Virus record (IMG/VR): IMGVR_UViG_3300021255_000128
Span: 1-64,000 of that record
Direction: 5' to 3' (one strand)
DNA: 64,000 nt
Source: a virus
Lineage: Duplodnaviria; Heunggongvirae; Uroviricota; Caudoviricetes
In this document: in pieces, positions 30,742-63,584 of the stretch
Position numbering within the stretch: position 1 is the stretch's first letter
How the letters are laid out: each line of letters starts with the position of its first letter
Position numbers and translations under genes: made by a program
Notes under the pieces: model-generated
What the model saw: only the letters and a program-made list of their open reading frames with translations
What the model was told of the DNA's origin: nothing
The model's database searches: none

Positions 30742-30743
30742 AA

Positions 30744-33232: not shown

Positions 33233-33254
33233 TATGTACTGATTTTGATAGTAT

Positions 33255-33305
33255 AGCGCATCGTTTTATGGTAACTTTAAGAGGTTCGAATCCTTTGATG
33301 CGCTC
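33255..33305 (+). ncRNA. mini tRNA-like element (acceptor-like stem enclosing a T-arm-like hairpin; no anticodon arm)
   Basis: AGCGCATC ... GATGCGCT 8-bp stem. Internal AGAGG-TTCGAAT-CCTTT. Confidence 0.35.
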
Positions 33306-35839: not shown

Positions 35840-36453
35840 TGAAAATACCATTTGATATCAAATACCGTGACAAGATTGAGTCCGGTAAGTATAAGGTGAA
35901 GACCAGAGATGGATGTCCAGTAAGGATTATTTGTTGGGACAGAGTAGACGTTCAACCTGTTGTTGCCCTAATTAGTGGCAAAGACGGAACAGAATTTACC
36001 GGTGAATTCACGATAGAAGGAAACTATTGGCTAAGCAAAATGGAATCTCATAAAGATCTTTTCGTCGTAATCCAAGATCCTGAGATGAGCAAGTTTGAGA
36101 AGGCAGTATCAAAATATCGTCCTCAGTCAGATACTTTGGAAACCATTCAACGCATTGCCGCTGAACTTCTTTCCCTTGCACGGAATGAATTTAATAAACA
36201 GATAGAGAACGATTATCGAGAAATTATTCACAATGCCTATGAAAAAGGTAAAACTGATACCTTGAGGGACTTGCCGAGGTGGAAGATTTGGAGTAATGGT
36301 GCCTGTGGGAATAGTGAAGGGTATCCAATTGCACTTGTTCATCGAGGTTGTGGATTTAATTTAGTCAGTACCCTTGGTATTGACGGAGAGAAGTACATAA
36401 TGCTTTCTGATCTTGAGAAATTACCCGGATTTAAGGAGGAAAACCATGAGTAG
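35839..36453 (+). CDS. hypothetical protein
   Basis: 204-aa ORF. Confidence 0.5.
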   Translation: MKIPFDIKYRDKIESGKYKVKTRDGCPVRIICWDRVDVQPVVALISGKDGTEFTGEFTIEGNYWLSKMESHKDLFVVIQDPEMSKFEKAVSKYRPQSDTLETIQRIAAELLSLARNEFNKQIENDYREIIHNAYEKGKTDTLRDLPRWKIWSNGACGNSEGYPIALVHRGCGFNLVSTLGIDGEKYIMLSDLEKLPGFKEENHE

Positions 36454-36664
36454 AGCAGAAGACGCAGCATTTAAGGCTGAATCTGGAACATCTTATAGCG
36501 AACGTGTTTATCGCGATGCTTTTCTTGATGGCTATGAGCAGTCCAATAAAGACGTCATATCCCTCATCGAATCCCGCATCGGAGAAATCCTGGGGGATGC
36601 CCAGCCAGCTCCGGTCTTAAGAGCAGAATTAAGAGAACTGATCAATAAAATCAAAGAGAAATGA
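36450..36664 (+). CDS. hypothetical small protein
   Basis: Start refined to MSRAEDAA. Confidence 0.4.
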
Positions 36665-38318: not shown

Positions 38319-38759
38319 TCTCCTAACAATATAAGGCACTTACAATACAAAATTGCTATTGATTCGATCAATTACTTAATATTTAACAACTCTATGCTGG
38401 TCATAGCGTGCGACACGCGTTAGTTTCCGTATCTAAAATACGTTATTTAAGTGGCTTGTAAGTGAAAAGTAACTTTCAGTGCCTTTTTAGATTTATTTTA
38501 ACAATATTTTTAAATCAAATGCCTAAGGTATCTGATTATGAACTTGAACATTTATCTGATAATGAATCTAATTTTCAGAAAGTTCGTAGTAAAAAACCTA
38601 AATCTTTAAAAGAACCAAAATACCCGGATAAAAAGAAAAATCGGGAAAAGAAAATTGACTTTTGAGATTTAGAAGAAAAAGAGTTTTAAAAGTTAATGAT
38701 ACATACAAATAAAAATCATTTATATTGCATTAATATTACTTGATTTGTATCATAAATAT

Positions 38760-39326: not shown

Positions 39327-40407
39327 TTTTGATAGGTATTACATATCTCCTGCATTAGTTTCTGATATAGAACATCGCTCAGAGTGTGTACCTTATTATA
39401 ACGCTTTTTATTCTGATGAACAAGGTGGTTGGTGTTTAAGTGGAGCTCATCTTCCAATCTTTGTTGCACCAATGGCATGTATTATTGATGAACATAATTA
39501 CATGAAATTTGATAATGAAGGATTAAATCCAATTATTCCAAGAACTGTTGATTTTCAGAAGAGACTTGAAATAATGAAACAGATGATTTGGATTGCTGTT
39601 GGATTAGATGAATTGGATTGGATTATTGATAATTATGAGCATTTTGATTCAGAGGTTTATATTTGTGTGGACATTGCAAATGGGCACATGAGAAAACTTC
39701 TTGATAAATGTAAGCAAGCAAAGCTTAAATTTGGACAAAATCTAAATTTAATGGCTGGTAATATTGCAAATCCATATACATATATAGAATATGCGAAAGC
39801 TGGCATTGATTATGTTAGATGCACTATTGGTGATGGACAAGCTTGTGCTACTGCTGATCTAACAGGAATTAGTCAGAATACACCAGAATTTATTAATGTT
39901 ATTAAAAAAATTAAAACATCGATTACAGAAAATTTTATAGAAAATAAAGAATATCTTTCTATTCCTAAAATTGTAATTGATGGCGGTATTTCTAAAATTA
40001 GAGACATTGTTATTGCCCTTGCCCTTGGTGCTGATTATGTAATGTGTGGAAAGATTTTTGCTCAATCTGAAGAAGCTTGTGGAGAAATCTTTGAAAAATT
40101 AATACCTGTAACAAGAGAGGAAATTTGTGATACATGTATTCCGAAAAAGATTAATACAGTAACTGTATCAGAATGGATTCCTGGAAGAATGTATTATGGA
40201 ATGTCTACACAGCGCGCTCAAAAAGAAATGGGAAACAAGCGATTAAAATCTTCTGAAGGTTATGAATATTGGGTTCCTATTGAATATAAACTTTCGGATT
40301 GGGTAAAACAATTTGTTGATGTGATAGCTTCTACAATGAGTTATTGTAATTGTACTCAACTTGGAGAATTTATTGGAAAAGTCGCTTGGCTTGAATATAA
40401 AAAATAA
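39307..40407 (+). CDS. IMP dehydrogenase/GMP reductase family TIM-barrel protein (GuaC-like)
   Basis: VDIANGH (cf. DTAHGH), catalytic-loop-like TIGDGQACATADLTG, and IVIDGGISKIRDIVIALALGADYVMCG (cf. IADGGI..GDI.KALAAGA..VM.G). Confidence 0.6.
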   Translation: MKKSMSSFDRYYISPALVSDIEHRSECVPYYNAFYSDEQGGWCLSGAHLPIFVAPMACIIDEHNYMKFDNEGLNPIIPRTVDFQKRLEIMKQMIWIAVGLDELDWIIDNYEHFDSEVYICVDIANGHMRKLLDKCKQAKLKFGQNLNLMAGNIANPYTYIEYAKAGIDYVRCTIGDGQACATADLTGISQNTPEFINVIKKIKTSITENFIENKEYLSIPKIVIDGGISKIRDIVIALALGADYVMCGKIFAQSEEACGEIFEKLIPVTREEICDTCIPKKINTVTVSEWIPGRMYYGMSTQRAQKEMGNKRLKSSEGYEYWVPIEYKLSDWVKQFVDVIASTMSYCNCTQLGEFIGKVAWLEYKK

Positions 40408-40464
40408 ATTTGGAAAATTAAAATATTTTTCGTAACTTTGTTTTATGATACTTATAATCCTAAT

Positions 40465-40544
40465 TAATTGTTGGTTCGAATCCAACTTCTGCTTTATCTT
40501 AGCTGAATGGCGAAATTGGTTTACGCGAATGACTTGAAATCATT
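40465..40544 (+). ncRNA. second candidate permuted/split tRNA (T arm plus acceptor 3' strand, then acceptor 5' strand, D arm and anticodon arm with loop CTTGAAA)
   Basis: GTTGG-TTCGAAT-CCAAC-TTCTGCT-T (40470-40494), a 6-nt spacer, then AGCTGAA-TG-GCG-AAATTGGTTTA-CGC-G-AATGA-CTTGAAA-TCATT. The acceptor strands pair 6/7. No T arm follows the 5' half and no 5' half precedes the 3' half. Confidence 0.35.
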
Positions 40545-40699: not shown

Positions 40700-41563
40700 A
40701 TGTTAACAAAAGATGATTTAACTCCAGAATTATTACAAAAAGAATTTGATTCTGGACTTTGACACATTGAAATAGGAGAAAAATATCATGTGTCATCAAG
40801 AACTATTTATGATTACGTTAAGAAATGAAATCTAAACGTTCCTCGTAAAAATAAAAAGAAAGAGGTTATAAAATTTGTATGTAAAAATTGTGGCAAAGAA
40901 TTTACTAAACTTGAACCAGAGGGTATTTGTTGAAACTGTAAACAAAAAAGAGATACTTTAGTAAACCAAGTACCTATTGAAAATAATAGTAATAGTAAAT
41001 ATCTTACAAATGTTTTAAAATTAAGAGCTGAAGGTTTATCTTATAAAAAGATTGCTGAAAAACTTGGGTGTAGTACATCAACGATATCTTATTTGTTATC
41101 AGATAAAACTAGAGAAAAACGCAAAGTACGATTAGAAAAATATAAAGACAATTGATATTTTTATTTAAAAAGACGTTTATCTGATTTTAGAACTAGAACT
41201 CCTGGCAATAATGTGACAATTAAGTGTGTCGATTGAAAAATAAAATTACAAAAAGGAATACAACGATTTAAAAATAGAAATAATATTATGCCTACGACAA
41301 ATTTTACATACAAAGATGTTCTTGATAAATTTGGAACAGTTGTTCAATGTGAACTAACCGGTAGAACAATTGATTTAACCAAAGATGATTACAATATTGA
41401 TCATATTATACCAGTTTCAAAAGGTGGTACAAATAATTTAGATAATTTAGCTTTTACCACTCCTGAAGCAAATGCTGCCAAAAATGGGCTTACCAATGAA
41501 GAGTTTGTAGCATTATGTAAAGAGGTTTGTGAACATTTTGGGTATACGGTAGTAAAAAATTAA
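40700..41563 (+). CDS. HNH endonuclease with HTH domain and 6 in-frame TGA codons
   Basis: LuxR/sigma-like HTH LSYKKIAEKLGCSTSTISYLL. HNH DHIIPVSKGGTNNLDNLAFTTPEANAAKNG. The frame is continuous only if TGA is sense. Confidence 0.7.
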
Positions 41564-41580: not shown

Positions 41581-41657
41581 CGTCTTGTCGTCCAATGGAA
41601 TTAGGACAGCTGTCTTCAAAATAGCCAATCAGGGTTTGAGTCCTTGCAAGACGACCA
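41581..41657 (+). tRNA. opal suppressor tRNA (anticodon TCA, reads UGA); Trp-like; CCA encoded
   Basis: Acceptor CGTCTTG/CAAGACG-A-CCA, D GTCC-AATGGAATTA-GGAC, anticodon stem GCTGT/ATAGC (one G-U) with loop CTTCAAA, T CAGGG-TTTGAGT-CCTTG. Confidence 0.75.
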
Positions 41658-45104: not shown

Positions 45105-45497
45105 ATGATTAAAATTGAAGAGAGATATATACCTATTTACCATCAATTAGTTTATTTTATATTAGGTGATCCGTATGAGGTTCAAGATTATCTTACAGAT
45201 GTGTATAGGGATAATTTTGAATTTAATCCTCAAACAGCCAATGCTGTAGTATTACATAATCATTTAACCAGTTGAATTTGATTTGATCATAAGAATATTA
45301 CAGTTCCTATAATAGCTCATGAATTAGATCATGCTGTATTTGATTTAATGATAGATCTTGGCTTAGAGTTAACAGATCAAGAAGCATTTTGCTATTTAGA
45401 TGAATGATTAATGGAACAATGTGTAGATATATTTGTTATACAGATGGCTCCTATCAATCTAGTAGAGGATCAGGAGGATGAGCAAGCATCATCTTAG
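45105..45497 (+). CDS. putative zinc metallopeptidase (HExxH) with 3 in-frame TGA codons
   Basis: IIAHELDHAVFDL. ORF is continuous only with TGA as sense. Ends at TAG. Confidence 0.45.
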
Positions 45498-45871
45498 ATG
45501 AAAATGAACAAGTTATAACAAAATTATATCAGGGTAAAACCCATACAACAAATAATCGTATGGAATTAACAGCTGTTCTTGAAACATTAAAATATTTTAA
45601 AGAGCCAACTGATATAACAATTGTTTCAGATTCACAATATGTAATCGGAGGAATTAATGGTTCTGCTAAAAAATGAATCGAAGATTCTGATTTAACTAAA
45701 AAGAATTTAGATCTTTGGTTTCAAGTTGTTGAATTACTTGAAAAACACAAAGTTACAACAATTTGAACCAAAGGTCATATTGGAAACAAATGAAACGAAG
45801 AAGCGGATCGTTTGTGTGTGTTTGCAGCACAATGTTATAATTTAGAGAGAGATGTATGAACTATCGAATAA
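45419..45871 (+). CDS. rnh: ribonuclease H (RNase HI-like), 4-5 in-frame TGA codons
   Basis: MCRYICYTDGS...GSGG(W)ASII, TAVLETL, SDSQYV, DLWF, TTI(W)TKGH, NEEADRL. TGA falls where E. coli RNase HI has aromatic or Trp residues. Confidence 0.8.
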
Positions 45872-46227
45872 GATTTAAAAAATTAGGATCAAATTGGTAT
45901 CCTGATATAGAGCACAATGATCCATATTCTTTAATATTGGATGAAAAGATTGAAAAAACTTTAGATTTGTTTAATAAAAGTAAATCTGGAGTAATAGACA
46001 TTAATTTTTGGGAAACATATACTGTAATAGATAATGCTACCATCATATTTAATGATTCAGATATATTGCGTTATCTAACAACAGATGATGATTTTGATAT
46101 TGAGTTTTATGTTGATGATCATCAATATGTAATATCTTCTAATTTATTTTATTTATTAGAAGCAAATTATAATTTTAATTTCCATAAATCTTTTTATAGA
46201 ATTGAAATACTTGATAGAGCAATTTAG
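45856..46227 (+). CDS. hypothetical protein
   Basis: 123-aa ORF. Confidence 0.4.
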   Translation: MNYRIRFKKLGSNWYPDIEHNDPYSLILDEKIEKTLDLFNKSKSGVIDINFWETYTVIDNATIIFNDSDILRYLTTDDDFDIEFYVDDHQYVISSNLFYLLEANYNFNFHKSFYRIEILDRAI

Positions 46228-46346
46228 ATGGGAAGGTAAAAGTTACTACCATCTTATTAATAGTAAGATTTTTAATTCTGATAAATTTATTAAAGAACGA
46301 TCTTATTCTAAAGGAAATTCATACTTTAAGATAACAAAATTAGAGG

Positions 46347-46862
46347 ATGAAGTTCAAAAACCAAGAAGAAAAAGAGGATAAAGTATTAATTTCTAAAGAA
46401 CTATATTCTGCTTTTTCAGATATTTTACAAATTGAGGAAGAAAAACTTGCACTTGTTGAAGCTGCAAAAATGTATTCTTTTATACATGGAAACATGAATG
46501 AAAAGAAATTCTTTAAATACTTGTTTGAAAAGTGTTTAGAAAATAAGTACTGTATTCTTGCTCATTTATACATGAATGAAGCACCTTCTCCAGAAAGAAC
46601 TATACATTCTATTAATTTGAAGAATTTTGAAAACTCCGAGAAATTCTTTGAATTGTTAGCATCAGCAGAAGATGATTATGTAAATATTTTAACTTCTGCT
46701 ATAAATATAGCATATAAAGATTATAATTGGGAGATGCTTATATATCTATTAAAGAAACTTGAATCTGTTGATCATTTGTGTTGTAGAGCATATGAAGCTG
46801 TTAAAAATGGAAATGATCCACTAACTTTAATTCCATGCGAACAACATTCTTCGGAGAAGTAG
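46347..46862 (+). CDS. hypothetical protein
   Basis: 171-aa ORF with TAG stop. Confidence 0.5.
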   Translation: MKFKNQEEKEDKVLISKELYSAFSDILQIEEEKLALVEAAKMYSFIHGNMNEKKFFKYLFEKCLENKYCILAHLYMNEAPSPERTIHSINLKNFENSEKFFELLASAEDDYVNILTSAINIAYKDYNWEMLIYLLKKLESVDHLCCRAYEAVKNGNDPLTLIPCEQHSSEK

Positions 46863-47151
46863 TTGCTACACAACCAGGGCAATATAAGATGTACGTGTTT
46901 AAAAATTTGGATGAACAGGATAGCAGTTTATTAAGATATTTTACTGTTACACAACCTCCAAATTGAAATATAGAAGATCTTGATATTGGTGACAAAGGTT
47001 ATGTAGAATGTGAATATGTTAATGCTGGAGATTCATATTATCAAGTTTCTACTCAGGAAATACAAACGTATAATTATACCGTTTGTTATTTATTAAATTT
47101 TATAAAACAAAAACCTAAAATAACTAATAAAGATTTTAAATTTTAAAGATT

Positions 47152-48003
47152 ATGAGTGATTTACAAGAAAAGTTGACACAGGCATTTGACGATCGAGATA
47201 AAGATATCAATCGTTGAACTTGAAAAATGTCTAATGGTACGGAAATAAAAATGGTTGACATGACATACGATCAACTTCAAAGAGCATATTGACATGTAAT
47301 TGATATGCTTTATAATAAAGATCCGTATCATCCTGGTGTACAACGTAAAAGAGATCAAGTAAGACGAATGTGGGATTGTGCTAATACAGAATTACTACTT
47401 CGTTATATTCTGCATGAATGTAGAGTTGATATTCTTAAAACAAATAAAGATTTACTTGATTTTATAAGTGCTCATAAAAGAGAGCATGGACTGAAAAATT
47501 CAGATACTGTTGATAAGATTTTTACTGGATTACCTGATGTATTTAGTTCTGTTACAATAGATATGTTGTTATCAGCTTGTCTAGATTCTTTAGATGCTTT
47601 TAATAGAAGATTGATTTCTGATAAATTTATTTTATCTTTAGGAATTTGACTTACTGAAGATGAAAAGAAAGATTTGACAGAATATGATAGTAATGGTAGA
47701 TATCGTAGTAAAAAGGATGTTATTAAGGAAAGATTGTTTTTGAATAATAATGTCGAATTACGATTTAATCCTCAAGGTTTGTCTTATAATGAATTTAGAT
47801 CAATTGTTCGATTAGAAGGAAGACCTAAATTCTCAAACATTCCTACTAATACTATAACTTTACTTCGAGATAAACTATTGTTACTATTGGATCATGATTT
47901 GGAATATCATATTAATCGTTGAAGTGTGCTAAAGGAAAAGATTGAAGCTGTCGCAATGCAGAACAATTTTATTCTAAAGCCTAGAGATGATAATCAAAGG
48001 TAA
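47152..48003 (+). CDS. hypothetical protein with 6 in-frame TGA codons
   Basis: Track ORFs 47305..47649 and 47674..47922 and the upstream ATG at 47152 share one frame, interrupted only by TGA. Confidence 0.5.
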
Positions 48004-49891
48004 AACGGCATTTGTTTATGATATTGAAGTATTTCCTAATTTCTTTAGTGTTGCAATAAAAAATACTGAATCTGGTAACATTCGTACATTTCAAATTTCA
48101 GAATGACAAAATGATATTGGAACAATAATACAATTATTTTTAAATCAAAATATATATTGAGTTGGATATAACTCAATTCATTATGATGCTCCAATTATAT
48201 CATATATTATTCTCAATTATCAAAAATTATCATCACAACCAGTTTGATTAACAAATCAGGAATTAAAACGATTCAGTGATTTAATCATTGAATCAAAAAC
48301 ATCTGCTTCATGAAAGAAATATAAATACGCTAATTTATTTGCAAATCTTGATTTATTAACAATGATGTTTGCAGAAAAATTACGAGTTTCATTAAAAGCA
48401 CTACAAGTAACAATGGAATATCGTAATGTTGAAGAGTATGATGGTAATTTTAATGATTTTCTTCCAAAGTCAGATGTAGAAAAATTAATTAATTATAATA
48501 TTAATGATATTTTATCAACTGAAGAACTTTTAAATAGGTTAAAAGGAGAAATTGATCTTCGTTTGGGAATAGAATCAAGTCTTGGTGTAAACGTATTAAA
48601 CCAGGATGGTGTTAATCTTGGTGTAGAAGTTATTAAAAACAGTTATTTGAAAGATACTGGAAAATCTTGATATGAAATTAAGGATTTAAGAAGTCCGTGT
48701 CATGAAGTAGATTTAAAAGATATCTATTTCGATTTTATAAATTTTAAAACACCATTATTTCAAGAGTTTTATAAAGAACTTTATAATACTCATATCAATC
48801 TCGACACAGAAAAACTTAAAAAGACAGCAGAACGATGAAAGAAAACGCTTAGAGTAAATGATCTTGAAATAACATATTCTTTAGGAGGTATTCATACTAA
48901 AAATAAACCAGAAATCTATAAAACAGATGATAAATGAATTGTTGTAGATTCGGATTGTGCCTCGATGTATCCAAGTGCTATTATAAATTTTGGATTGTAT
49001 CCTCAACATCTCGGACCAGAGTTTTTAAGAACCTATAAGAAGATTCGTGAGGACAGAATTAAAGCTAAACACAATGGCGACAAAATCATGAATCAAACTT
49101 ATAAATTAGCACTTAATGGTATTTCTGGAATGCTACAAAATGAGTATAGTTGATGCTATGATCCAAAAACAGTTATAAGACTCCGATTGAATTGTCAAGC
49201 AATGTTATTAATGCTTACAGAACGTTTAATAATGCTTGGATGTCGTATTGGACAACTTAATACAGATGGTGCATTATATTTAGCTCCTAGAGACAAATTT
49301 AATGATGTAATGCAAACCTGTAAAGAGTGAGAGGAAGAAACACAATTTCAGTTAGAGCATGAATACTTTGAAGTATTTTATCAATATGCTGTAAATGATT
49401 ATATAGGCGTGTATAAAGGTTATTCTGAATCACATGATCCCAAGTTAATAAAGACAAAAGGATTATTTATTCGTGAACCAATTCTTGGCAAAGGAATGGC
49501 GCCTCAAATTATTGCGGAAGCATTAGTACAGTATTTTGTAAATAATGTTCCAGTAAATGATACGTTATATAACTGTAATGACATTAAGAAGTTTTTAACG
49601 TTTCAAAAAGTAAGTCGAGATTTTAGTGTTGAATATAATGGTCAACTTTTAACGCACATTAACCGATATTATATGTCCATTAATGGACATAAAATTCGTA
49701 AATGTAAAATCGATGAAAACGGTAAACGATATGATTATGAGGATATGTGTGCAACTTCTGGAGTTACCTTGTTTAATGTATTAGAAGATATATCTCCAAA
49801 AGACGCTAAAATTAATTATAGTTGATACCGTAATGAAATATATAAAATAATTTATGCTATTGAGGATAGCTTAAATCCAAAATTATTCTAA
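47987..49891 (+). CDS. polB: family-B DNA polymerase with 3'-5' exonuclease domain; all 10 Trp codons are TGA
   Basis: Exo motif FVYDIEVFPN, exo II-like YNSIHYDAPI, Pol motif A DSDCASMYPSAI, motif C-like QLNTDGALY. Continuous 634-codon frame only when TGA is sense. Confidence 0.8.
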
Positions 49892-50814
49892 TGAAATTAG
49901 ATTTAAACTTATTAAAGAGAGCGCTGTCAATAAATCATCCGTCTAAAAAAGAATGGCCAATGTTATCATTTATAATAAATGAATGCTATAAAATTGGAGG
50001 ACTTTCTTTTGAACAAGATGGATATTGTAATATCTTTATAACCAAAAATACATCTAACCCTGATTATTATCCTTGTGTTGTTTGTCATACAGATCACGTT
50101 GTATCTTGTGACAACAAAGAGGTTAAAATTAAAAATAATAAAATATGGGGTAGAGATAAAATAACTGGAAAACAAACGGCTCTTGGTGCAGATGATACTA
50201 ATGGTATTTGCTGTGCAATTCAGTTATTAAAAGAAATTCCTGATTTAAAAGTTTGTTTTACTACAGAAGAAGAAGTTGGATTTTTAGGAGCGGATTATGC
50301 TTCTGATAATGTAGATTTTTTCTATAATGTAGCTTATATGATACAAGCTGATAGACATGGAAAATCTGACCTTATTACTTATACAAATGGTATTTATTCT
50401 GCATCAGAAATATGGTTGCAAGAAATATCTGGTATAATGGCTGAATATGGTTATAAAGAAGAATATGGATTAGGGACAGATATTGGTGTTCTTGCTGAAA
50501 AATTGCAATTATCTGGTGTAAATATTTCTTGTGGTTATTATGAAGAACATAAAGTTACAGAATATACTATTATACCAGAACTACAGAATTGTTTAAATTT
50601 TATGGAAGCAATTCTAAAGACAGTTCCTCTTGATAAACAATATGAAATTAAGATTGATTATAAGGCGTATAATAAATACTTTGATTATGAGCCTAGTTAT
50701 AGACAACCTTCTAATAATTATTTTGATGATTATCCTAGAGATGAATATGACTATTTAGCTTGTGATCATTGTCAGTCTTATGATTGTATGAATTGTAAAA
50801 TATATCCAATGTAA
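49891..50814 (+). CDS. M42/M20-like metallopeptidase-family protein (standard code, TGG only)
   Basis: CHTDHV, LGADDTNGI and EEEVGFLGA motifs. C-terminal Cys-rich tail. Confidence 0.5.
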   Translation: MKLDLNLLKRALSINHPSKKEWPMLSFIINECYKIGGLSFEQDGYCNIFITKNTSNPDYYPCVVCHTDHVVSCDNKEVKIKNNKIWGRDKITGKQTALGADDTNGICCAIQLLKEIPDLKVCFTTEEEVGFLGADYASDNVDFFYNVAYMIQADRHGKSDLITYTNGIYSASEIWLQEISGIMAEYGYKEEYGLGTDIGVLAEKLQLSGVNISCGYYEEHKVTEYTIIPELQNCLNFMEAILKTVPLDKQYEIKIDYKAYNKYFDYEPSYRQPSNNYFDDYPRDEYDYLACDHCQSYDCMNCKIYPM

Positions 50815-52033
50815 ATGGATAGAACAGAACGACAAAAACTCTGTTTAAAACGATGATTAAACTCTGGAGGCAAAGCAAGTATTGAGGCTTGCACAGGGTT
50901 TCGGAAAAACTAGAGTAGCTTTAAATCTTATAGATGCATTTACTGCTAAAAATCCAGAAGCTCAGACATTAGTAGTTGTTCCTACTCAAATCCTCAAAGA
51001 TCAATGAATACAACAAATCGATGAAAGAGGATTAGGATTAAATGCTAGAGTTGAGATAATTAATTCAGTTATTAAATTGGATTGGATTTGTGATCTTCTT
51101 GTAGTAGATGAGGTTCATGTTTGTGGAAGTGATACTTTTCAAAGAGTGTTTCAATGTGTAAATTATAAGTTTATTCTTTGTTTAACTGGAACAATGGAAC
51201 GATTGGATATGAGACATCTTCTCATTGAAAAATTTGCTCCAATTTGTGATAGAGTTACAATTGAAGAAGCGGAACAAAATGGATGAGTGTCTCCACATAA
51301 AGAATACCTTGTACTATTAAATGTAGATCTTACTGAATATAATGAATGGACTCGTAAATTTAATAATTATTTTTCTTATATGAATTATGATTTTTCATTA
51401 GGTATGAAGTTAGCAACAGATCCAATTTTTAGAAATTCATGAGCTAAAACAATGGGATTGGATTCTAAAAAGACAGCTGCTATTGCAATGGATTGGATGA
51501 GAATGATGAAAAATCGAAAGAATTTTATTCAAAATCATCCTAAAAAGTTAGAAGTTGCAAAGAAAATAATTGAAGCAAGAAAGGATAAAAAGATAATGAC
51601 CTTTTCTGCTACAATTAAACAAGCAGAGTCTTTTGGATTTGGATATGTAGTTCATTCTGATAAAAAATCAAAAGAAAATAAGGAAACACTTGAAGCGTTT
51701 AACAATGCTGAATCTGGAGTTTTACACTCCTCAAAAGCATGTAATACTGGATTGGATTTAAAAGGAATTAACTGTGAAATCATTATGAACACAGATTCTT
51801 CCAAAATCAAAAAAGTACAAACTGTTGGAAGAAGTTTAAGATTTGAGCAAGGTAAAACCGCTGAAATTTTTACACTTGTTTTGGCAGGTACACAAGAAGT
51901 AAAATGATTTACGAATAGTAAAGCATCTAAAGTAATAACAATTAATGAAGATCAGTTAGATAAAATACTAGCTGGTGAAAATATTGAAACTCGGGAAAGA
52001 AATTATTCCGAAAATTTAACATTTAGATTTTAA
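50815..52033 (+). CDS. SF2 (DEAD/DEVH-box) helicase; needs a +1 frame change near 50897-50903 plus 4 TGA as Trp
   Basis: Frame 1 MDRTERQ...IEACTGF, then frame 2 FGKTRVAL... together give motif I ACTGFGKT across the GGGTTTC homopolymer junction. DEVH box VVDEVH. Motif VI TVGRSLR. Confidence 0.6.
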
Positions 52034-52127
52034 CAGTTTCAGCCTAAAGGTATTTAAAGTACTATGGAACGTTAAATTAATCACTTAATTTAACAATAAT
52101 TTGGAACTAGACACAATTTTAAATCTA

Positions 52128-52697
52128 ATGATATCATATAGACTCACTGCTGACGAACTCCTATTGGTTTATTTAACGTTTCTAGCCCAAGAGGAGGAAG
52201 GACATCCTGAGTTTTTAGCAAAGTGATTTTCTAATGGTGGCGGGTCTAAACTAAAAGGATTATTTGAATCCTTGAAAGAAAAAGGTATTATTCATAAAGA
52301 TTATAATCCGGAATCATATAATCCAGACGATATAGAATTTAATAAAAATTTTCTAAAAGGATGAGTTAAGAATTCTGGAGAACTTGGAAAGGAATTATTT
52401 GAAGCATACCCTCCTTTTCTAACAATACAAGGAAGAACTTATCCACTTAAAAACATCGCAAAGAAATTTAATTCTTTAGATGATTTTTTCTTCCATTATA
52501 GTAGCCAAATAAAACACAATCCGGAAAAACATAAGGAAATTATGGAAATATTAGATTGAGCAAAAGCAAATAATAAAATTACTAGTGGTATTTTAGAATT
52601 TGTTTGTAGTAATGGATGGGATAGCTTAAAATATCTTAAAGAGCATCCACAAGAGGGTCAAGTGGAAAGTACATTTAATGTATATGAAAGTATTTAA
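52128..52697 (+). CDS. hypothetical replication-module protein with 3 in-frame TGA codons
   Basis: 189-aa frame continuous with TGA as sense. Confidence 0.45.
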
Positions 52698-53830
52698 TGA
52701 CAGATCTTGATCTTCTTTGAACTCTCATAGATAAAGGTAAAAAGGGTGATAACGTAGGTATTTCTTCGGGATTATCTAAATTAGATAAATTAATAGGAGG
52801 TATTCAGCCGCACCGATATTATTTATGTGGTGCAGCTTCATCTGTAGGTAAAACAGCCTTTATTCTCTTTATTATGTATAACATTTTAAAGAATGAAGAT
52901 AAAAAACGTCCTGTATATTTTCAATATTATAGTTTGGAAATTGGAGCAGATGTTTTACTTGCAAAATTGATGGGATTGTATTGTGCAGAAGAATTTGGAA
53001 TTTATTTAACAATAAATGATATTTTATCTTTTGAACATCCGATTTCAGATGAATATTATGAATACCTAAAACAAGCTAAAAAATGACTTTCAACCGTTAC
53101 AGAATATATAGATATTGTTGATACGAATGTTAGCGCTGATGTTTTATATGCTCGCACTTGTAAATTTGCAGAAACAATTGGCCATTTCGAAGTAATTGAT
53201 GGTAAAAAAGTTTTTATAGCAGATAATCCAAATGCTATAATTATTGGAGTCATTGATCATTTTGCATTAATGAATGTACAAGCTGGAAGAACACTAAAAC
53301 AAGAAATTGATTTAGCATCTTCTTATATGGTAACTTTAAAACGAAAATTACCGTTATCTTGATTTGCATTAATGCAACAAAATAGAGCTTCATCTGATAT
53401 CGAACGTCGTAAATTAGATTTGAGCGAACCAGGTCTTAATGATTTAAAAGATAGTGGTTCACCAAGTCAGGATTCAGACGTTGTGATGCAATTATTTTAT
53501 CCATTTAGAGAGAAGCTAGCTACGTATCGCGGTTATCGAATTCTTGGTGAAAACGGAATTGGACAAAACCATAGATCCTTAATTTTAAGTAAAAATCGTT
53601 ATGGTATTGCTAATCAGGTAATAAATCTTGGTTTTTATGGTTCTGTAGGATGGTGAATTCAACTTCCACCTCCAGAAAAAATTACGGATTATACACAATT
53701 TCATTCTGAAAATGGAAACATACCTTTAAAAAATAAAAAAGAAACATTAATAGAAGATGATTCTACTCCACAACGAGTAGATGAGAAAAAGCCTATAAAA
53801 TTTAATTTTAATGGCTATCGAATTACCTAA
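52697..53830 (+). CDS. DnaB-like replicative helicase (RecA-fold C-terminal domain), 5 in-frame TGA codons
   Basis: Walker A GAASSVGKT, IGVIDHFALM and QQNRASSDIERR...DLKDSGSPSQDSDVVMQLFYPF typical of DnaB/gp4-type helicases. Confidence 0.7.
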
Positions 53831-54554
53831 AACAAAAGTTAAGGCAGAATTACAGGATCCTAAGTACTTAATTGTATTTGGGCGTCCGAAAATCGGGAAG
53901 TCAACAGCCCTTGCTGCCCTTCCAAACAATCTTATAGTTGATCTTGAAAGTGGTTATAAGTATATTGATGCTCTTAAAGTCGAAGCAAATAATTTAAATG
54001 ATTTAAAGGAAATTGCAATAGCTATAAAAGAAGCTGGTTGCCCATATAAATATCTCACACTTGATACTATTACAAAACTAGAAGAAATTGTAAAACCTTT
54101 AGCATTAAAGCTATATCTCGATACTCCAGCTGGTAGTAAATTTACCGGTAAAGATGTTTTAGATGCACCAATGGGAGCTGGATATAGTAAAATTAGAGAA
54201 GCTATTGAGATGATAATCGATATGTTTCAGAAGGTTGTACCAAATATTATTTTAGTATGCCATGTTAAAGATTCTGCCGTAGCTAACAGTGATGTAACTG
54301 CAAAAGTTATTGATTTAACTGGTAAAACTGGTAGAGTACTAGCATCTAGATCAGATGCAATTGGATATTTATATAGAGATGATTTCTCTAATTCAATTTT
54401 AAGCTTTAATAGTAATGATAAATTTGTAGAATGTGGTTCTAGACCAGAACATCTTCGCAATAAGGATATTGTTCTTGGAGAAATGCAAGATGATGGAACC
54501 ATTATTTATCATTGGGAACGTATATTCCCATCAGAATCCACTAATAATGCTTAA
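53811..54554 (+). CDS. P-loop ATPase (AAA_24 / Sak4-like recombination ATPase), standard code
   Basis: LIVFGRPKIGKST Walker A. Size and context with the exonuclease and helicases. Confidence 0.55.
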   Translation: MAIELPKTKVKAELQDPKYLIVFGRPKIGKSTALAALPNNLIVDLESGYKYIDALKVEANNLNDLKEIAIAIKEAGCPYKYLTLDTITKLEEIVKPLALKLYLDTPAGSKFTGKDVLDAPMGAGYSKIREAIEMIIDMFQKVVPNIILVCHVKDSAVANSDVTAKVIDLTGKTGRVLASRSDAIGYLYRDDFSNSILSFNSNDKFVECGSRPEHLRNKDIVLGEMQDDGTIIYHWERIFPSESTNNA

Positions 54555-54831
54555 AATATCATTTGTTTTTGATGAAACATCTGGAGCAGTATCCAATGTA
54601 AAAGTGGACGGATATAAACCAAAAATCAAGGAAGTAAATGCTCCTTGTACAGATGTTGATCTTGAAGTACAAGAAAACAAACTCAAGTTGTCTAAAAATG
54701 CATTACAAAAACTTAATGCAAAAGCAGATGACAGAATATCAATTCAGTATTGACAAGAAGGTATAGGTAAATCTGTACCTATTATTGGAAAAGCTGAAAT
54801 GTTCACCGATAGATTAGATGGTAAAAAATAA
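54547..54831 (+). CDS. small protein with one in-frame TGA
   Basis: 94-aa frame. Confidence 0.35.
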
Positions 54832-54925
54832 GAAATTAATATATTTTCTTGTAAAAATTAAAAAATTTCCGTACATTTGTAATGTAAAATATAAGATTTT
54901 AGAATAAATATGAAAATTATAATGT

Positions 54926-56047
54926 ATGGATAAAACAGAACAAATTTTAAATTTAGTAAAAACAACAGAGTTAAATATAACAGATATTGCAAAAAAAGTT
55001 GAATTATCAAAAGAAGATGTTATAAAAATTCTTATACATAACGAATATTATAGACTTGCCGATAATCCAAGAGCAAAATTTTTTTCTGTTAAGAAACTGC
55101 ATGACGCTGCTATTGATTATATAAATAATTTTAATGGAACGTTATCAATTAATACATTCATTAAAGAACGAGGTGTAGAAGCACAAGTTTTTAGGGAATA
55201 TATTAGGAAATGATATCCAGATAATCAAGCTATAAGATACAGCCGATATAATGCAACAATATTTGATAATATAGATACAGAAGAAAAAGCGTATTGACTT
55301 GGATTTATTTTTGCCGATGGATACATTACAGATCCTGAAACATCAACATCACATCGTTATAAATTTGAATTATCTTTATCAAGTAAAGATGAGGAACATT
55401 TAAGAAAATTTGCAAGATTCGTTGATTTTACTGGTGCAATTGAGCATAGAACAATTAAATCTTGTCCTACTGGAAATAAAAACTCGTATCCGACTGTAAG
55501 AATTATATTGAACGGTCAGCATTTATGAGAAACATTAAATTCTTATGGATGTACTCCAAGAAAAAGTCTTACACTTAAATTTCCAGATATATCTATATTT
55601 AAAAATATGTCTTTGATTCGACATTTTATTCGTGGATATTTTGATGGAGATGGTACAATTGGTATTTATGACTCAAAGGGCTGTTATAATGGAAAAGAGT
55701 ATAATTATAGTCATAACAAATGTCAATGTGGAATGTTGGGCACACAGGAATTTCTAAGCACTATGTGTAAGTACTTACCTTTTGATAATAAAATTTCTTT
55801 ACACGGTAATGAAAAACATCCATGCAATGCTTATAATATTCAATTTGTATGTAAAGAAGCGTTTGCTATTGCATTTTATTTATATTATAAAAGTTCTGTT
55901 TATTTAGATAGAAAATATGTCAAATTTTTAGAATATTGCCGTTTATATAAGGAATTATATAAAATATTAGAGGGCAGTATCGGGGAAGACTGTGATGTTG
56001 ATCCCGAGCTAATTAAATCTATTACGAAAGGAGATTTAATAGCGTAA
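54926..56047 (+). CDS. double-motif LAGLIDADG homing endonuclease with 3 in-frame TGA codons
   Basis: LGFIFADGYI and IRGYFDGDGTI motifs. Track ORFs 54926..55213 and 55607..56047 share a frame. Confidence 0.75.
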
Positions 56048-56153
56048 CGCGTAGGTCTTGAATAAATATAATAGACCCAAGAGTGTCCTCTACCCCAACT
56101 GAAATAAGTGGGTAAAAAGGTACGCTGAACTACGAAGAAACGAATTCGTAGAA

Positions 56154-56429
56154 ATGTGTATAAAAAGACACATGATAACAAAATTGAATCGATTAACTAA
56201 AGTCGGTACTGTTTCATTTAGAGGAGAAAAGCGTACAACGTTACTTGAGTTTGGAACGTATTTTAATTTAGAAGAATTTAAAGATGGAATTTGGAAACTT
56301 GTTTCTATTAAAATAGAAGAGAATAAAGATGATCTTTCTGAGGAACAAGAAGATGCAGAAGCTTTAAATGATTCTGAAATTGATAAAGAGATAGAAAATA
56401 TTATGGCAGACGATGATCTGCCCTTTTAA
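56154..56429 (+). CDS. small acidic protein
   Basis: 91-aa ORF. Confidence 0.4.
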   Translation: MCIKRHMITKLNRLTKVGTVSFRGEKRTTLLEFGTYFNLEEFKDGIWKLVSIKIEENKDDLSEEQEDAEALNDSEIDKEIENIMADDDLPF

Positions 56430-56448
56430 CATATAATAAAGTTATACT

Positions 56449-57138
56449 ATGGGAATGTTTAATTTAGGCTCTACCACCGGCCTTTCTGAAGGTGGTAAGT
56501 TTCTTAGTGCTGGTATTCACAATGCAAAGTTTAATGGATTGGCTTTAAGTGAAATTACATCTCAAAAAGATGGTACTGTTTATAATACTATGCAGTTAAC
56601 ACTTAATGTTGATGGTTATGGTGATTTTGTTCATAATTTCTTTGAGCCTACATCTACGGAAAGAACCCAGTCTCAATTTGGAGAAAATCCTTCACAGGTA
56701 GAACAGTTTATGGTAGCCCTTCGTCAAATTCTTGATGCTCTTGATCCTGCAATTGGTGAAGCTATTGATAACGATAACGTAGTCGTTCAGGGTAAGAAGA
56801 TTAATATTGGGAACATGGACTTTGGTCCACTTGTAAGACTCTGTGCCGTTCTTACTAAACCTTATATTGGAAAGGAAGTTGAAGTAAAGCTTGTTCCTCA
56901 GTCTAATGGATTTAACAGTATTCCTGGTTTCCCTGCAAAGATTAATCGTGCTGGTGCTCTTGGAATTGCTACTAGATTTATTGGTCACGATCTTTCTCTT
57001 TCTCAGAGCGAACAGAGAAGAATTGAACAGGCTCAGAACAATCGACCTACAAACATGGCAACATCTGTAAGTAATACAACACTTGACGGTGTAGCAGATG
57101 CTCTTGGCGTTAATACTAGTACAGATCTTCCATTTTAG
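56449..57138 (+). CDS. hypothetical protein (higher GC)
   Basis: 229-aa ORF, codon style like other high-GC genes. Confidence 0.5.
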   Translation: MGMFNLGSTTGLSEGGKFLSAGIHNAKFNGLALSEITSQKDGTVYNTMQLTLNVDGYGDFVHNFFEPTSTERTQSQFGENPSQVEQFMVALRQILDALDPAIGEAIDNDNVVVQGKKINIGNMDFGPLVRLCAVLTKPYIGKEVEVKLVPQSNGFNSIPGFPAKINRAGALGIATRFIGHDLSLSQSEQRRIEQAQNNRPTNMATSVSNTTLDGVADALGVNTSTDLPF

Positions 57139-57144
57139 TAATTA

Positions 57145-58149
57145 ATGAAATTTTCATTAGAGCCAATCACGATAACAAAGGAATTAATTTTAAATAGAAT
57201 TCCTGAAGAACAGATTATGGAACACTATTTAGGCGTAAAAATTCAAAAAGGTCTATTTAGAAGTCCCCTTAGAAAAGATCAGAAACCAACTGCGAGTTTC
57301 TATAGAGATCGACGTGGTAGGTTAATAATGAAAGATTTTTCTGGAGCATTTAGTGGCGACTGTTTTGCAGTTGTCATGGAACGATTCCAGTGTAGTTATT
57401 ATATGGCTCTTCAAATAATAGCAAATGATTTCGGAATAATTCGACGTAACGATTTAACTAAACATAAACCAAAAATCGAATATTCCGGAATCAAATTTGA
57501 AGAGAAAGAATCTGCTAAAATTCAAATAAAAACTCGTGATTTTACAGAAGATGAATTAAATTGATGGTTAAAATACGGAATCACTAAACAAACTCTTGAA
57601 AAATTTAGAGTTTATCCTGTAGATGCTGTATGATTAAACGATCAATTATTTTATCAAAATTTAGATAAAAAACCTGTATTTGGATATTATGGAGGAATAA
57701 AGAATGGACTCGAACAATGAAGAATTTATTTTCCAGGCAATACAAGATACAAGTTTATATCTAATTGAAAACAAGAACAAATTCAAGGAGCGCATATGCT
57801 TTCTAAAGAAGGTGGTGATTACATTATAATTACAAAGTCTTTAAAAGATGTTATGGCTTTATATGAATTTGGAGTACCTGCAATAGCACCATGTTCTGAA
57901 AATTTATTTGTTACTAAAGCTCAATATGAACAATTAAAAAAGCATTATAAACATATATATGTTTATTATGATAACGATTTACCTGGTGTTCAAGCCATGC
58001 GAAAAATACATAAACAGTTTCCAGAAGTAACCTGTATAATGTTACATAGAGAAGATGCAAAGGATTTTTCTGATTATAGAAAAGCCTTTGGTTATAAAAA
58101 GACTTTGGAATTGGTTAATAAAGCAAAAGAATACTATGGCGAAACGTAA
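57145..58149 (+). CDS. DnaG-like primase (zinc-binding-like N-terminus plus TOPRIM-like core), 4 in-frame TGA codons
   Basis: FRSPLRKDQKPTASFY...GDCFAVV resembles the primase zinc-binding region. ITKSLKDVMALYEFG..AIAP.SE is TOPRIM-like. Track ORFs 57145..57564 and 57796..58149 are in-frame. Confidence 0.5.
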
Positions 58150-58462
58150 AAAAGAAATCGAACTTCCAACTGAAGAAGATATTGAAAAAAAGCCAAAAAG
58201 AAGAGGAATTGGAGCGAGAAATAAGGCTAGAGGTAACGAATATGAATGTAGAATTGCAAAAGAACTTCGAGAATTAGGATTTACAGGAGTTGTTACATCA
58301 CGTAGTGAATCTAAAAGAACAGATGATAATAAAGTTGATTTAATTGATACAGAGCATCGTTTGCCTTTTAATATTCAACTTAAACGTACTCAAACTACCC
58401 CTCAATATTTTAAAATTCGAGAAGAATCTACAGTTGATCCAGAATCATTTGTTTTAATTTGA
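58136..58462 (+). CDS. small basic protein, possible nuclease; ends in TGA
   Basis: MAKRKKEIEL...RGNEYECRIAKELRELGF...DLIDTEH. Confidence 0.35.
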   Translation: MAKRKKEIELPTEEDIEKKPKRRGIGARNKARGNEYECRIAKELRELGFTGVVTSRSESKRTDDNKVDLIDTEHRLPFNIQLKRTQTTPQYFKIREESTVDPESFVLI

Positions 58463-58602
58463 AATAAACAGGAGAAAGCAAACGTGAACTTTTTATCGGT
58501 AGGTGAAGTAGTCATGCTTGATAAAAAGACATTTTATAAACTAATTAAACCTTATGCAAAATCCGAGAGCGAATAACTTTCGGATTTTTAGTATATTATC
58601 GT

Positions 58603-58797
58603 ATGAAACAATTTAAGATTGCAGTTAGCACACCTGATAGAGCAATCATTATTCCAATGGAGTATGATGATCAACAGGATGTTGTAGAAATTAAAGAATT
58701 ACAGGTAGAACCTGTTCCTGATAAAGACGAGGACCTTTCTAAGGACCCCGCATTTTTTATTGTACAAAAAATATTAAAAGCGTTTTATAATGACTAA
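58603..58797 (+). CDS. hypothetical small protein
   Basis: 64-aa ORF. Confidence 0.35.
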   Translation: MKQFKIAVSTPDRAIIIPMEYDDQQDVVEIKELQVEPVPDKDEDLSKDPAFFIVQKILKAFYND

Positions 58798-60133
58798 ATT
58801 ATATCCTTTCTTAAGTGGAACATTACGTCAGATTATTTCAGAACTTGTTCAGAAACAAAATCCTATTGCAAAAGAAATATTAAGAATTGATACGGATGTT
58901 GAGGATACATTAAGAGTTTATAATTATATACCAGCAAATCTACGTGAGAAAATCATTGAAAAAGTTATTAATCCATCTTTAACTGGAGAGGTGTCAATGA
59001 TTTCTATAAGAGTTGGAGGTGAAGATCCGAATGTGTCATTTCTTCCTAAAGATAAAGAGCCAGAATATACTCCCGATGGAACTTGGGCTAGAAGAAATAG
59101 ACAAGAAGGAAAACCAGCTCGAATATTTCAGAAGGCTATAGTAAAGGAATTTAAACAACAAGAATGGGAAATATTTTCCAATCTTTTTAAAGCAGAAGTT
59201 TGTAATTGTAATAATTTTGAATTAGTATCTGGAGAAGACATTCGTAAATGGTATTTTGAAGCAAATTATTATGATTGTAAGGGAACTCTTGGAAATAGTT
59301 GTATGCGTTATGAAAGTGCGCAAGACTATTTTGATGTCTATGTAGATAAGGCGAAAATGCTTATCACAAAGAAAGCTGGTAAATTAACCGGTCGTGCAAT
59401 TGTATGGGAAATTGATGAAAATACAACAATTCTTGATAGAGTTTATACGTGTTTTGATTATTTGTATAATTGTTTCATCGATTATGCTAAAGAAAACAAA
59501 TGGATTATCAGAGAAGATAATTCTCTTTTACATACTGGGGATGAACAATATTGGTTAGTTCCTGAAGACAATTATACTACTTCGAGACATCTTTCCTTTA
59601 AAATAAAACTAGACAAGGATTATGAATTCTTCCCTTATGTAGATTCGTTTAGATACTATAACCAAACTGGAAATTATCTAACAACAGAGCTTTCTGAATG
59701 CGCATTGGATAGTACCGATGGTGATTATTGCAGATGTTCTGTTCAATGTGATCATTGTGGAAGAACATTCTTTGGTTACGATGACGATGATTTACCTGAC
59801 GAACTTCATTGGTCTGAATGGTCTGATGAATATTTATGTGATGATTGTTGTTTTTGGTCTGATAGATTAGAACAGTATATCCCAAATTCAGTAGAACACG
59901 TCTTTGTACACACAGGATCTATAGCGGGAGACAATGTACCTCTATGTGAGATAGAATCTGATATTGTTAGTAATCCTGAAGAAGCAGAAAACATTGAAGA
60001 TCCTATTGTAATCATAGACGAAAAGTACTATTATTTAAACGAATGTAAAAATATAATTGCATTCAGTTTTGATAAAAATTGTTATGTTTTAGTATCATCT
60101 CCTCAAGGTACAAACAGACCAGCTGATATTTGA
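58790..60133 (+). CDS. hypothetical Cys-rich protein
   Basis: 447-aa ORF. C-terminal Cys clusters (CRCSVQCDHCGRTF..., CDDCCFW). Confidence 0.5.
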   Translation: MTKLYPFLSGTLRQIISELVQKQNPIAKEILRIDTDVEDTLRVYNYIPANLREKIIEKVINPSLTGEVSMISIRVGGEDPNVSFLPKDKEPEYTPDGTWARRNRQEGKPARIFQKAIVKEFKQQEWEIFSNLFKAEVCNCNNFELVSGEDIRKWYFEANYYDCKGTLGNSCMRYESAQDYFDVYVDKAKMLITKKAGKLTGRAIVWEIDENTTILDRVYTCFDYLYNCFIDYAKENKWIIREDNSLLHTGDEQYWLVPEDNYTTSRHLSFKIKLDKDYEFFPYVDSFRYYNQTGNYLTTELSECALDSTDGDYCRCSVQCDHCGRTFFGYDDDDLPDELHWSEWSDEYLCDDCCFWSDRLEQYIPNSVEHVFVHTGSIAGDNVPLCEIESDIVSNPEEAENIEDPIVIIDEKYYYLNECKNIIAFSFDKNCYVLVSSPQGTNRPADI

Positions 60134-63059: not shown

Positions 63060-63584
63060 ATGGATTTTAGGCTTAAATTAAAAGACCGCTGGTGCGAATG
63101 ATATAAATGTTGAGTTACATTCAACTACCTGCGTGATACAGATCCTTTATTCAAGATAAGAGATAATTCCGTAGATGAATTCGGAAAACAAGATAGAGAT
63201 TTTTGTGTTTATTTTGTTTTTGATGGTGCTGGTAGAATTATTTATATTGGTAAGGGACGATATTGGCATTATGAAAAGTATGGATTTGATTTGTTTTGAG
63301 AATCTAGGCCATTTACACATGATGATTTTTTAGCGGATCAAATAACAAGTGATTGTAAGATTGGTATAATTCATTACGGTCTTACGGATTTAGAAGCAAA
63401 ACTACTTGAAGCATATTATATATTTGATGCTCTAATGCATGGGCGAACACTTACAAAAACAAAAGCACAAACATGAAACGGCTATTCACTCATAAATAAG
63501 AAGCGAGAAATGGTTTCAAATTTTTATGATGTGGCTAGCACATATTTAATTAATCGCTTATGGAGATCGATAGAGATCTATTAA
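63060..63584 (+). CDS. GIY-YIG homing endonuclease with 5 in-frame TGA codons
   Basis: CVYFVFDGAGRIIYIGKG (GIY ... YIG spacing). The frame is continuous only when TGA is sense. Confidence 0.6.

Follow-up and report, generated by a model that had tools for sequence, protein, structure and literature searches.

Gene-selective use of TGA as a tryptophan codon in a phage genome resembling the Zeta-group crAss-like phages

The stretch of DNA analysed here (the window) is 64,000 nt long and corresponds to positions 1-64,000 of the tailed phage record IMGVR_UViG_3300021255_000128 in IMG/VR, which is about one third of a genome of ~176 kb. Its overall GC content is low (~32%), and all credible genes are located on the plus strand, the single convincing exception being the minus-strand gene at 1630-2346. 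According to Pfam and PHROGs, the genes from 1 to 45 kb are auxiliary ones and encode SPFH/Band 7, PcfJ-like, IMPDH-like and NUDIX proteins, metallophosphatases and GroEL as well as a COOH-NH2 ligase/amidotransferase/amidoligase cluster. The 19 tRNA genes called by ARAGORN are spread over 6.2-41.6 kb and end with one that carries the anticodon UCA. The region from 45 to 58 kb is a replication module with RNase H, a DNA polymerase, an SF2 helicase, a DnaB-like helicase, a Sak4-like AAA_24 protein, a Toprim primase and a RusA-like resolvase. Seven open reading frames (ORFs) of endonuclease type are dispersed over the two regions and the rest of the window. In a defined subset of these genes, to which most replication genes and all endonuclease-type ORFs belong, TGA is read as tryptophan (Trp), whereas the other genes of the first 45 kb encode Trp by TGG.

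A preliminary description of the window, made from the sequence alone, had proposed that the recoding of TGA is gene-selective and that nearly all genes at 1-45 kb use TGG only. The counts bear this out. The 47 non-endonuclease genes of at least 80 amino acids (aa) at 1-45.1 kb, in the following referred to as the early set, contain 127 TGG codons and not a single internal TGA in 8,779 codons; TGA is found twice in terminal position. The replication block (45.1-58.2 kb) has 41 TGA and 16 TGG codons (Fisher test against the early genes, 3e-28), and the seven endonuclease-type ORFs together have 25 TGA and four TGG codons (4e-25). About two thirds of the genes make no in-frame use of TGA. The replication block is itself heterogeneous (permutation G-test, p = 0.005), since five of its genes, with eight Trp codons altogether, use only TGG, and the remaining genes show a TGA/TGG ratio of 41/8. 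Recounting reproduced the statements that all ten Trp codons of the polymerase are TGA (10 TGA, 0 TGG) and that the M42-like peptidase, here called M28-like, and AAA_24 are restricted to TGG (0/3 and 0/1). The four TGA and one TGG given for RNase H are a fair count as well, a fifth TGA (45857) overlapping the ATG of the next gene. In the comparison of coding densities that had been suggested as a check, the value for 45.1-58.2 kb rises from 56.5% under code 11 to 93.7% when TGA is sense.

The conclusion that TGA means Trp in the recoded genes is drawn from four independent lines, namely strain polymorphism, swaps in relatives, the alignment columns of the polymerase and solved RNase HI structures. 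At codon 53654 of the DnaB gene the window has TGA, where two strains of 97-98% identity have TGG. The TGA sites of the window are occupied, in the three IMG/VR relatives L016-L018, by TGA 43 times, by TGG six times, by F or Y three times and by K or Q twice; in the other direction, TGG sites of recoded genes align with TGA eight times. Eight of the ten polymerase TGA sites fall on W/F/Y columns when compared with six standard-code polymerases of crAss-like Suoliviridae, and three of these columns are mostly TGG. In solved RNase HI structures, W or Y occupies the positions of the RNase H TGAs, one of these residues being the conserved W in front of KGH. Moreover, Pfam and PHROGs matches run across the in-frame TGAs, and the phrog_1252 match of the polymerase spans all ten of them. 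The HNH ORFs at 9774, 22339 and 26553 share, as judged by eye, a TGA just past the second Cys pair of the zinc finger. A reading of TGA as Gly (code 25) was rejected, as TGA aligns with W/F/Y or TGG and no Gly column was found.

The window also encodes the suppressor tRNA that the preliminary description had invoked. The tRNA(UCA) has a canonical cloverleaf with a 7-bp acceptor stem, a 5-bp T stem and a 4-nt variable loop, and CCA is encoded. ARAGORN labels it "SeC", a label that results only from the anticodon UCA. A selenocysteine tRNA was rejected, as neither a long variable arm nor an 8+5/9+4 acceptor/T helix is present. A BLAST search of tRNA(UCA) against phage records gave no match; it may derive from a Trp- or an Arg-tRNA.

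At the same time, TGA appears to have kept its function as a stop in part of the genes, in agreement with the earlier remark that this is no plain code-4 genome and that several TGG-using genes end in TGA. In TGG-only genes TGA is restricted to the last 2-14% of the ORF as bounded by TAA or TAG. Three of these TGAs lie in ATGA overlaps with the next start (15669, 29342, 36661), and two recoded genes likewise end in ATGA overlaps (45404, 45856). The terminal TGA of TGG-only genes is backed up by a TAA or TAG 4-30 codons further on. For about seven early-type genes TGA is very probably still the stop, and their products would gain short C-terminal extensions once suppression begins.

Table 1. 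Features of the window, with the number of TGA and TGG codons where Trp codons were counted
Feature	Position	Strand	TGA/TGG	Remarks
Apparent TGA-stop genes	4693-5127, 24316-25431, 38519-38665, 58790-60133
HTH_36 protein	1630-2346	-		in the 2.4-kb gap that opens the forward block; one in-frame TGA (codon 12)
tRNA-Leu(UAA)	9376-9685			221-nt anticodon-loop intron; ARAGORN with introns
HNH + NUMOD homing endonuclease	9774-10790	+	4/1	embedded in standard-code block
tRNA-Arg(UCU)	10913-11424			438-nt intron; ARAGORN with introns
TGG-only genes with TGA stop in ATGA overlap	15481-15672, 36446-36664
HNH endonuclease	22339-22809	+	2/0	among tRNA genes
PD-(D/E)XK_5 endonuclease	23488-23889	+	2/0
HNH-motif endonuclease	26553-27263	+	5/0	weak Pfam match
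TGG-only gene with apparent TGA stop	28626-29345	+		ATGA overlap with gene at 29342; backup TAG 4 codons on
Peptidase C26/GATase, COOH-NH2 ligase, class II amidotransferase, amidoligase cluster	29342-33232			phiEco32-like peptide-ligase set; all TGG-only
HNH + HTH endonuclease	40700-41563	+	5/0	directly upstream of suppressor tRNA
Opal-suppressor tRNA, anticodon UCA	41581-41657	+		ARAGORN; Rfam tRNA 50.7 bits; in standard-code block
HExxH-motif ORF	45105-45497	+	3/0	phrog_1365
RNase H	45404-45871	+	5/1	in-frame TGAs; the last (45857) overlaps next ATG
ORF 45856			0/2	TGG-only
ORF 46347			0/1	TGG-only
103-aa gene	46835-47146	+	1/0
283-aa gene (u283)	47152-48003	+	5/1	recoded in relatives too
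DNA polymerase	47987-49891	+	10/0	phrog_1252, E 3e-136, end-to-end match
M28/M20/M42-like peptidase	49891-50814	+	0/3	TGG-only; start overlaps polB stop (TAATG)
SF2 (ResIII/DEAD) helicase	50815-52033	+	5/3	frames 50815-50901 and 50903-52033
189-aa gene (u189)	52128-52697	+	3/1
DnaB-like helicase	52697-53830	+	4/1
AAA_24 / Sak4-like annealing protein	53811-54554	+	0/1	TGG-only; overlaps recoded neighbours
SSB-like gene, exon 1	54547-54822	+		one TGA (54751), kept in the uninterrupted allele
Intervening sequence, ~1364 nt	54823-56186	+		boundaries +/-2 nt; carries LAGLIDADG ORF
LAGLIDADG endonuclease ORF	54926-56047	+	3/0
SSB-like gene, exon 2	56187-56429	+
229-aa ORF	56449-57138			ends DLPF; no Trp codon
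Toprim primase	57145-58149	+	4/1
RusA-like resolvase candidate	58136-58576	+	1/0
GIY-YIG-like ORF	63060-63584	+	4/3	motif by eye

The partition of the genes is conserved in relatives, where the pattern of each gene and the gene order are kept at 50-90% protein identity. RNase H, u283, the polymerase, the SF2 helicase, u189, DnaB and the primase are recoded in every relative. On the other side, u447 (0/10-11 TGA/TGG), the dGTPase-like gene (0/4-6), PDDEXK (0/7), GroEL (0/3) and AAA_24 (0/1) are TGG-only there, and the M28-like peptidase of two diverged relatives (66-71% identity) has 0/3 in both lineages. All Trp codons that were newly gained in M28-like orthologues are TGG. Not one of 25 conserved Trp sites in TGG-only genes has changed from TGG to TGA, whereas 14 swaps were counted in recoded genes. 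This conserved avoidance of TGA across diverged relatives argues for selection.

Recoding also extends beyond the window. The GroEL protein of the window is encoded on scaffold_63 of ENA ERZ28612978, a scaffold of 175,784 bp, which is equal to the window wherever the two were compared. Sister genomes are scaffold_50 of ERZ28612951 and scaffold_57 of ERZ28655795. Upstream of the window this scaffold carries a minus-strand block, and all three late genes that were read there are recoded, i.e., those of a 1370-aa protein (31 TGA/22 TGG), of a 560-aa protein with a lysozyme domain (10/0) and of a third protein (3/0). Downstream follow NrdD/NrdG, dUTPase and ligase; NrdD (6/8), the ligase (2/2) and a 126-aa ORF (6/0) are recoded, and other genes there are not. 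Since the late block and these three downstream genes are recoded as well, the recoded set is dispersed and does not form one module.

The annotations of the replication genes given in the preliminary description (RNase H, SF2, DnaB-like, primase, M42-like, AAA_24) are confirmed by Pfam and PHROGs. Its label "family B" for the polymerase had to be dropped, as neither Pfam nor PDB sequences gave any match and PHROGs gives only "DNA polymerase"; the B-family motifs were read by eye alone. PHROGs assigns a function to few of the unannotated recoded ORFs, and most remain without assignment. Two of the TGAs in the HExxH ORF are internal, and the third (45405), located in the ATGA overlap with the RNase H start, may be its stop. 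The ORFs 54490-54831 and 56154-56429 are the two exons of one SSB-like gene of 171 aa with the C-terminus DDDLPF.

It had been claimed that every homing endonuclease of the window is recoded, and indeed all seven ORFs carry TGA, although the first starts at 9774 and not at 9840. ORF 63060 does carry TGA, but its assignment as a homing endonuclease goes back to the GIY-YIG-like motif, and no family match was found. The endonuclease elements are uniformly written with TGA and, judged from their distribution among strains, actively mobile, because the LAGLIDADG element, the segment with the HNH ORF at 9774 and a NUMOD insertion in the helicase gene are all strain-variable. The LAGLIDADG intervening sequence, for which Rfam gave no intron match, is missing from the 97%-identical strain L006, where the intact allele is located at 3461-3976. 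The segment 9363-10796 is replaced by a different sequence in related strains. Furthermore, the sister strains L022, L023, L024 and L026 have an insertion of ~1.3 kb in the helicase gene (window ~51111), which encodes a 318-aa NUMOD1 endonuclease and is absent from the window genome.

Two tRNA genes, Leu(UAA) and Arg(UCU), are added to the ARAGORN list when introns are allowed, and the HNH + NUMOD endonuclease is situated between them. The intron of tRNA-Leu has a sub-threshold match to the Rfam group I intron (9418-9623, 39.7 bits, E 1e-6). A tmRNA-like match (Rfam RF00023) was observed at 21757-22182 with 33 bits against a gathering threshold of 47 (E 1.5e-9) and without an ARAGORN call. Perfect T-arm motifs (GGTTCGAATCC) occur outside the annotated tRNAs at 16261-16375, 23370-23466, 33210-33305 and about 40400-40495, one of these sites being a 115-nt Rfam tRNA match of 33.9 bits. 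These sites may be degenerate, split or unusual tRNA genes.

The SF2 helicase had been described as continuous when TGA is sense. Read-through of TGA is needed, but a +1 frameshift at 50902 is needed as well. The gene lacks a start codon in frame. Its first 29 codons (50815-50901) are read in a different frame, and the Walker A codons are broken by one additional nucleotide, C50902 (GGG TTT C GGA AAA ACT, shift site 50896-50905). The identical allele is present in at least six independent assemblies, and an in-frame allele occurs in sister strains and in the 77%-identical relative L017, whereas in L016 a GIY-YIG intron separates the G codon of this Walker A motif from the K codon. Among the frameshifted strains, 14 synonymous versus two non-synonymous changes are found downstream of the shift, and the N-terminal part is invariant. 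The shift site GGG UUU CGG consists of a slippery P-site codon (UUU to UUC) followed by CGG, the rarest Arg codon with 0.58 per 1000. It is plausible that tRNA-Phe slips by +1 from UUU to UUC at the hungry CGG codon, which would restore GFGKT. The site is therewith a candidate for a programmed +1 frameshift or for a scar allele that is resistant to an endonuclease. It is similar to +1 frameshifting of the prfB/Ty1 type in that the P-site codon is able to re-pair in the +1 frame before a rare codon, and differs from it in that sister strains have an in-frame allele, that the site is an intron-homing site and that it is known from sequence alone. Frameshifts inside conserved motifs have been reported for Zeta phages, where "unknown expression mechanisms" were suspected (Yutin et al., 2021, PMC7886860).

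The parent genome looks like that of a Zeta-group crAss-like phage. The likeness results from genome size, from the forward tRNA/replication and reverse virion blocks, from the richness in introns and endonucleases and from the polymerase. The scaffold length lies within the 145-192 kb of this group, and 64 kb contain seven endonuclease-type ORFs, the LAGLIDADG intervening sequence and two intron-containing tRNA genes. The nearest polymerases are those of the Suoliviridae, which are merely 40-43% identical, and a megablast search with 24 kb of the window against GenBank phages gave no match. Zeta-group phages share with this genome the size of ~176 kb, the arrangement of the two blocks, many introns and homing endonucleases, a tRNA-Sup(UCA) and the restriction of TGA as Trp to part of the genes (PMC7886860; PMC12386605). 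In contrast to the phage Lera, in which the recoded ORFs are mostly structural (PMC12386605), nearly the whole replication module is recoded here as well. A scan for sigma-70 promoters and terminators at 40-60 kb did not exceed the shuffle expectation and is uninformative on transcription units, and intergenic k-mer counts returned tRNA T-arm motifs and nothing else. A strong terminator-like hairpin (CCCCTGAGAGAAAGC...GGGG then T8) is located at 28570-28620, directly after a 340-aa gene (27542-28564), and the GC content is unusually high (0.41) at 1-2 kb of the window.

Taken together, we consider it likely, with a probability of roughly 0.7, that this is a Zeta-type crAss-like phage with two dialects, i.e., with an early block in standard code and with replication, late and endonuclease genes that are recoded and timed by the suppressor. 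What the analysis demonstrates of this explanation is the codon partition, its conservation, the Trp meaning of TGA and the presence of the suppressor tRNA. In a presumed standard-code host, release factor 2 would truncate the recoded proteins until the phage suppressor tRNA accumulates, and only then would they be made at full length. The result would be a translational delay of replication, late functions and endonucleases. AT-biased pressure from G to A at third codon positions would turn TGG into TGA wherever translation before the suppressor is dispensable, and purifying selection would hold TGG in genes that a naive host must read. The recoding of the endonucleases would be explained by their exclusive circulation among recoded phages and by the lack of any benefit from being expressed early. 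Control of timing by the suppressor tRNA, which the preliminary description had offered as one of two possibilities and which is a published model, is compatible with all observations.

Several points weigh against this explanation. Its timing step is pure inference, and the standard genetic code of the host is a presumption. The tRNA(UCA) has A as discriminator, and its charging by tryptophanyl-tRNA synthetase is putative; G is typical of bacterial tRNA-Trp. The alignments of polB, DnaB and RNase H, which had been proposed as a check, place TGA mostly on W/F/Y columns. The expectation that TGA falls where homologues have Trp or an aromatic residue stands for RNase H and for eight of the ten polymerase sites, but two polymerase sites fall on an invariant R or E and one DnaB site falls on a V/I column in alignments with PDB DnaB sequences. 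The latter is weak counter-evidence, which is outweighed by the direct TGA/TGG polymorphism in the same gene. The contrast in codon usage per gene is modest (Mann-Whitney p = 0.02-0.005), and the genes of the early set differ among themselves. The TGG-only status of the M28-like and AAA_24 genes hangs on one to three Trp codons per gene. Moreover, both genes overlap or abut recoded neighbours, with which they are probably co-transcribed, and therefore any timing difference there would be purely translational. The map of TGA use covers the readable portion of ~84 kb of the 176-kb genome.

Among the rival explanations, decay of the TGA-containing ORFs to pseudogenes is the one that can practically be dismissed. 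The additional frameshift of the SF2 helicase would suit it; the interruptions, however, are always TGA and never TAA or TAG, domain matches cross them, the sites are conserved or swapped with TGG, and the helicase alleles show the 14:2 excess of synonymous changes, by which pseudogenisation is ruled out. It is also highly improbable that genome and host use code 4 throughout and that the TGG-only genes merely reflect the codon bias of highly expressed genes. The low GC content would fit such a genome, and in the public gene calls TGA is treated as sense over the whole scaffold. True code-4 genomes, however, have 80-90% TGA among their Trp codons (Mgcod; Pfennig et al., 10.1101/2022.06.29.495998), which is far from 127 TGG and no internal TGA in the early set. 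TGG-only genes have TGA at ORF ends only, three times in ATGA overlaps and each time with a backup stop, and crAss-like phages infect Bacteroidota, which are standard-code users. A uniform code 4, under which practically every gene would use TGA for Trp and none would end in it, was therefore rejected.

The other possibility offered by the preliminary description, a mosaic origin, means that the module and the endonucleases came from a code-4 source into a standard backbone, or that the TGG-only genes were taken up recently from hosts with the standard code. Many TGG-only genes look host-derived (GroEL, IMPDH, NUDIX, amidotransferases, peptidase), polymerase swaps are known in crAss-like phages (Yutin et al., 2021, PMC7886860), and the two classes differ in codon usage. 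Recoded genes, endonucleases and late genes have A at 0.39-0.47 of the third codon positions (A3), with AAA/Lys and CAA/Gln both ~0.8, versus an A3 of 0.33, AAA/Lys of 0.66 and CAA/Gln of 0.6 in TGG-only genes. Against this origin, recoded and TGG-only genes alternate singly with stop/start overlaps at 49891 and 53811, at least three separate places besides the endonucleases are recoded, including the late block on the other strand and the downstream NrdD and ligase, and relatives with as little as ~50% protein identity keep the same pattern and gene order, which leaves ample time for codon amelioration. A mosaic origin is thus very unlikely. A passive footprint is less remote, although we still regard it as unlikely: with an efficient suppressor in place, AT-biased mutation would convert TGG to TGA by neutral drift in every gene whose product can be spared during the first minutes, and the partition would reflect the need for suppressor-independent translation, or just a small number of Trp codons, and would not be a timing device. 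It agrees with this that recoded genes are generally richer in A3 and poorer in GC3 (G or C at third codon positions), that TGA and TGG swap freely at orthologous sites of recoded genes, and that several TGG-only genes of the block have just one to three Trp codons. Drift overlaps with the suppressor-timed explanation, however, as the TGG-only genes would still have to be read before or without the suppressor, and the absence of swaps at the 25 conserved Trp sites, together with the gain of exclusively TGG codons in M28-like genes, points to active avoidance. On top of suppressor timing one may imagine a programme at the level of single genes, in which co-transcribed replication genes would differ in timing: the M28-like, Sak4-like and SSB-like proteins would appear immediately, and their TGA neighbours would wait. 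A programmed +1 frameshift of the helicase would be a second layer and one of the expression mechanisms suspected by Yutin et al.; it may have originated as a homing-resistant allele at an intron insertion site. This is a tentative and rather doubtful idea.

Much of the pattern is already published. Opal reassignment in Zeta-group crAss-like phages and a model with early standard and later recoded genes were described by Yutin et al. (2021, PMC7886860), whose Figure 7c shows a Zeta polymerase and its intron ORFs with multiple TGA. A code switch regulating late genes was proposed by Borges/Peters (10.1101/2021.08.26.457843), with variable recoding of replication genes, which are mostly recoded in Lak phages; in Agate phages, a group I intron endonuclease in an early gene prefers TGA, which was read as delayed production. 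Partial opal recoding, recoded Zeta polymerases and intron ORFs, and preferential TGA in an intron endonuclease are thus known. The phages of the code-switch model (Ivanova, 2014; 10.1101/2021.08.26.457843) likewise have standard early genes, a phage suppressor and recoded late genes; they differ from the genome described here, in which all seven endonuclease-type ORFs are recoded, including free-standing ones in the tRNA array, and in which single TGG-only genes interleave within the recoded replication cluster. The dual-coded genomes found with Mgcod (10.1101/2022.06.29.495998) similarly mix codes 11 and 4, and their in-frame TGAs are matched by TGA or TGG in relatives. The replication genes usually belong to the non-reassigned part there; in the present genome the replication module is preceded by the boundary, and the alternation is finer than the block scale of the tool. 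Such a boundary is less common, yet within the described range. With code 4 of Mycoplasma/Spiroplasma the genome shares the AT-richness and the decoding of TGA as Trp by a tRNA(UCA), but about two thirds of its genes are free of TGA, which seemingly still stops some of them.

The genome is a clean example of dual coding in an abundant group of gut phages; the principle being published, it opens no new question, and the helicase frameshift is the one element that possibly leads somewhere new. Annotation pipelines with a single code would either break up the replication genes or extend early genes past their TGA stops. For the phages themselves, the example indicates that the boundary between standard and recoded genes can precede the replication module and not only the late genes, and that mobile endonucleases inside a standard-code region can be uniformly recoded.

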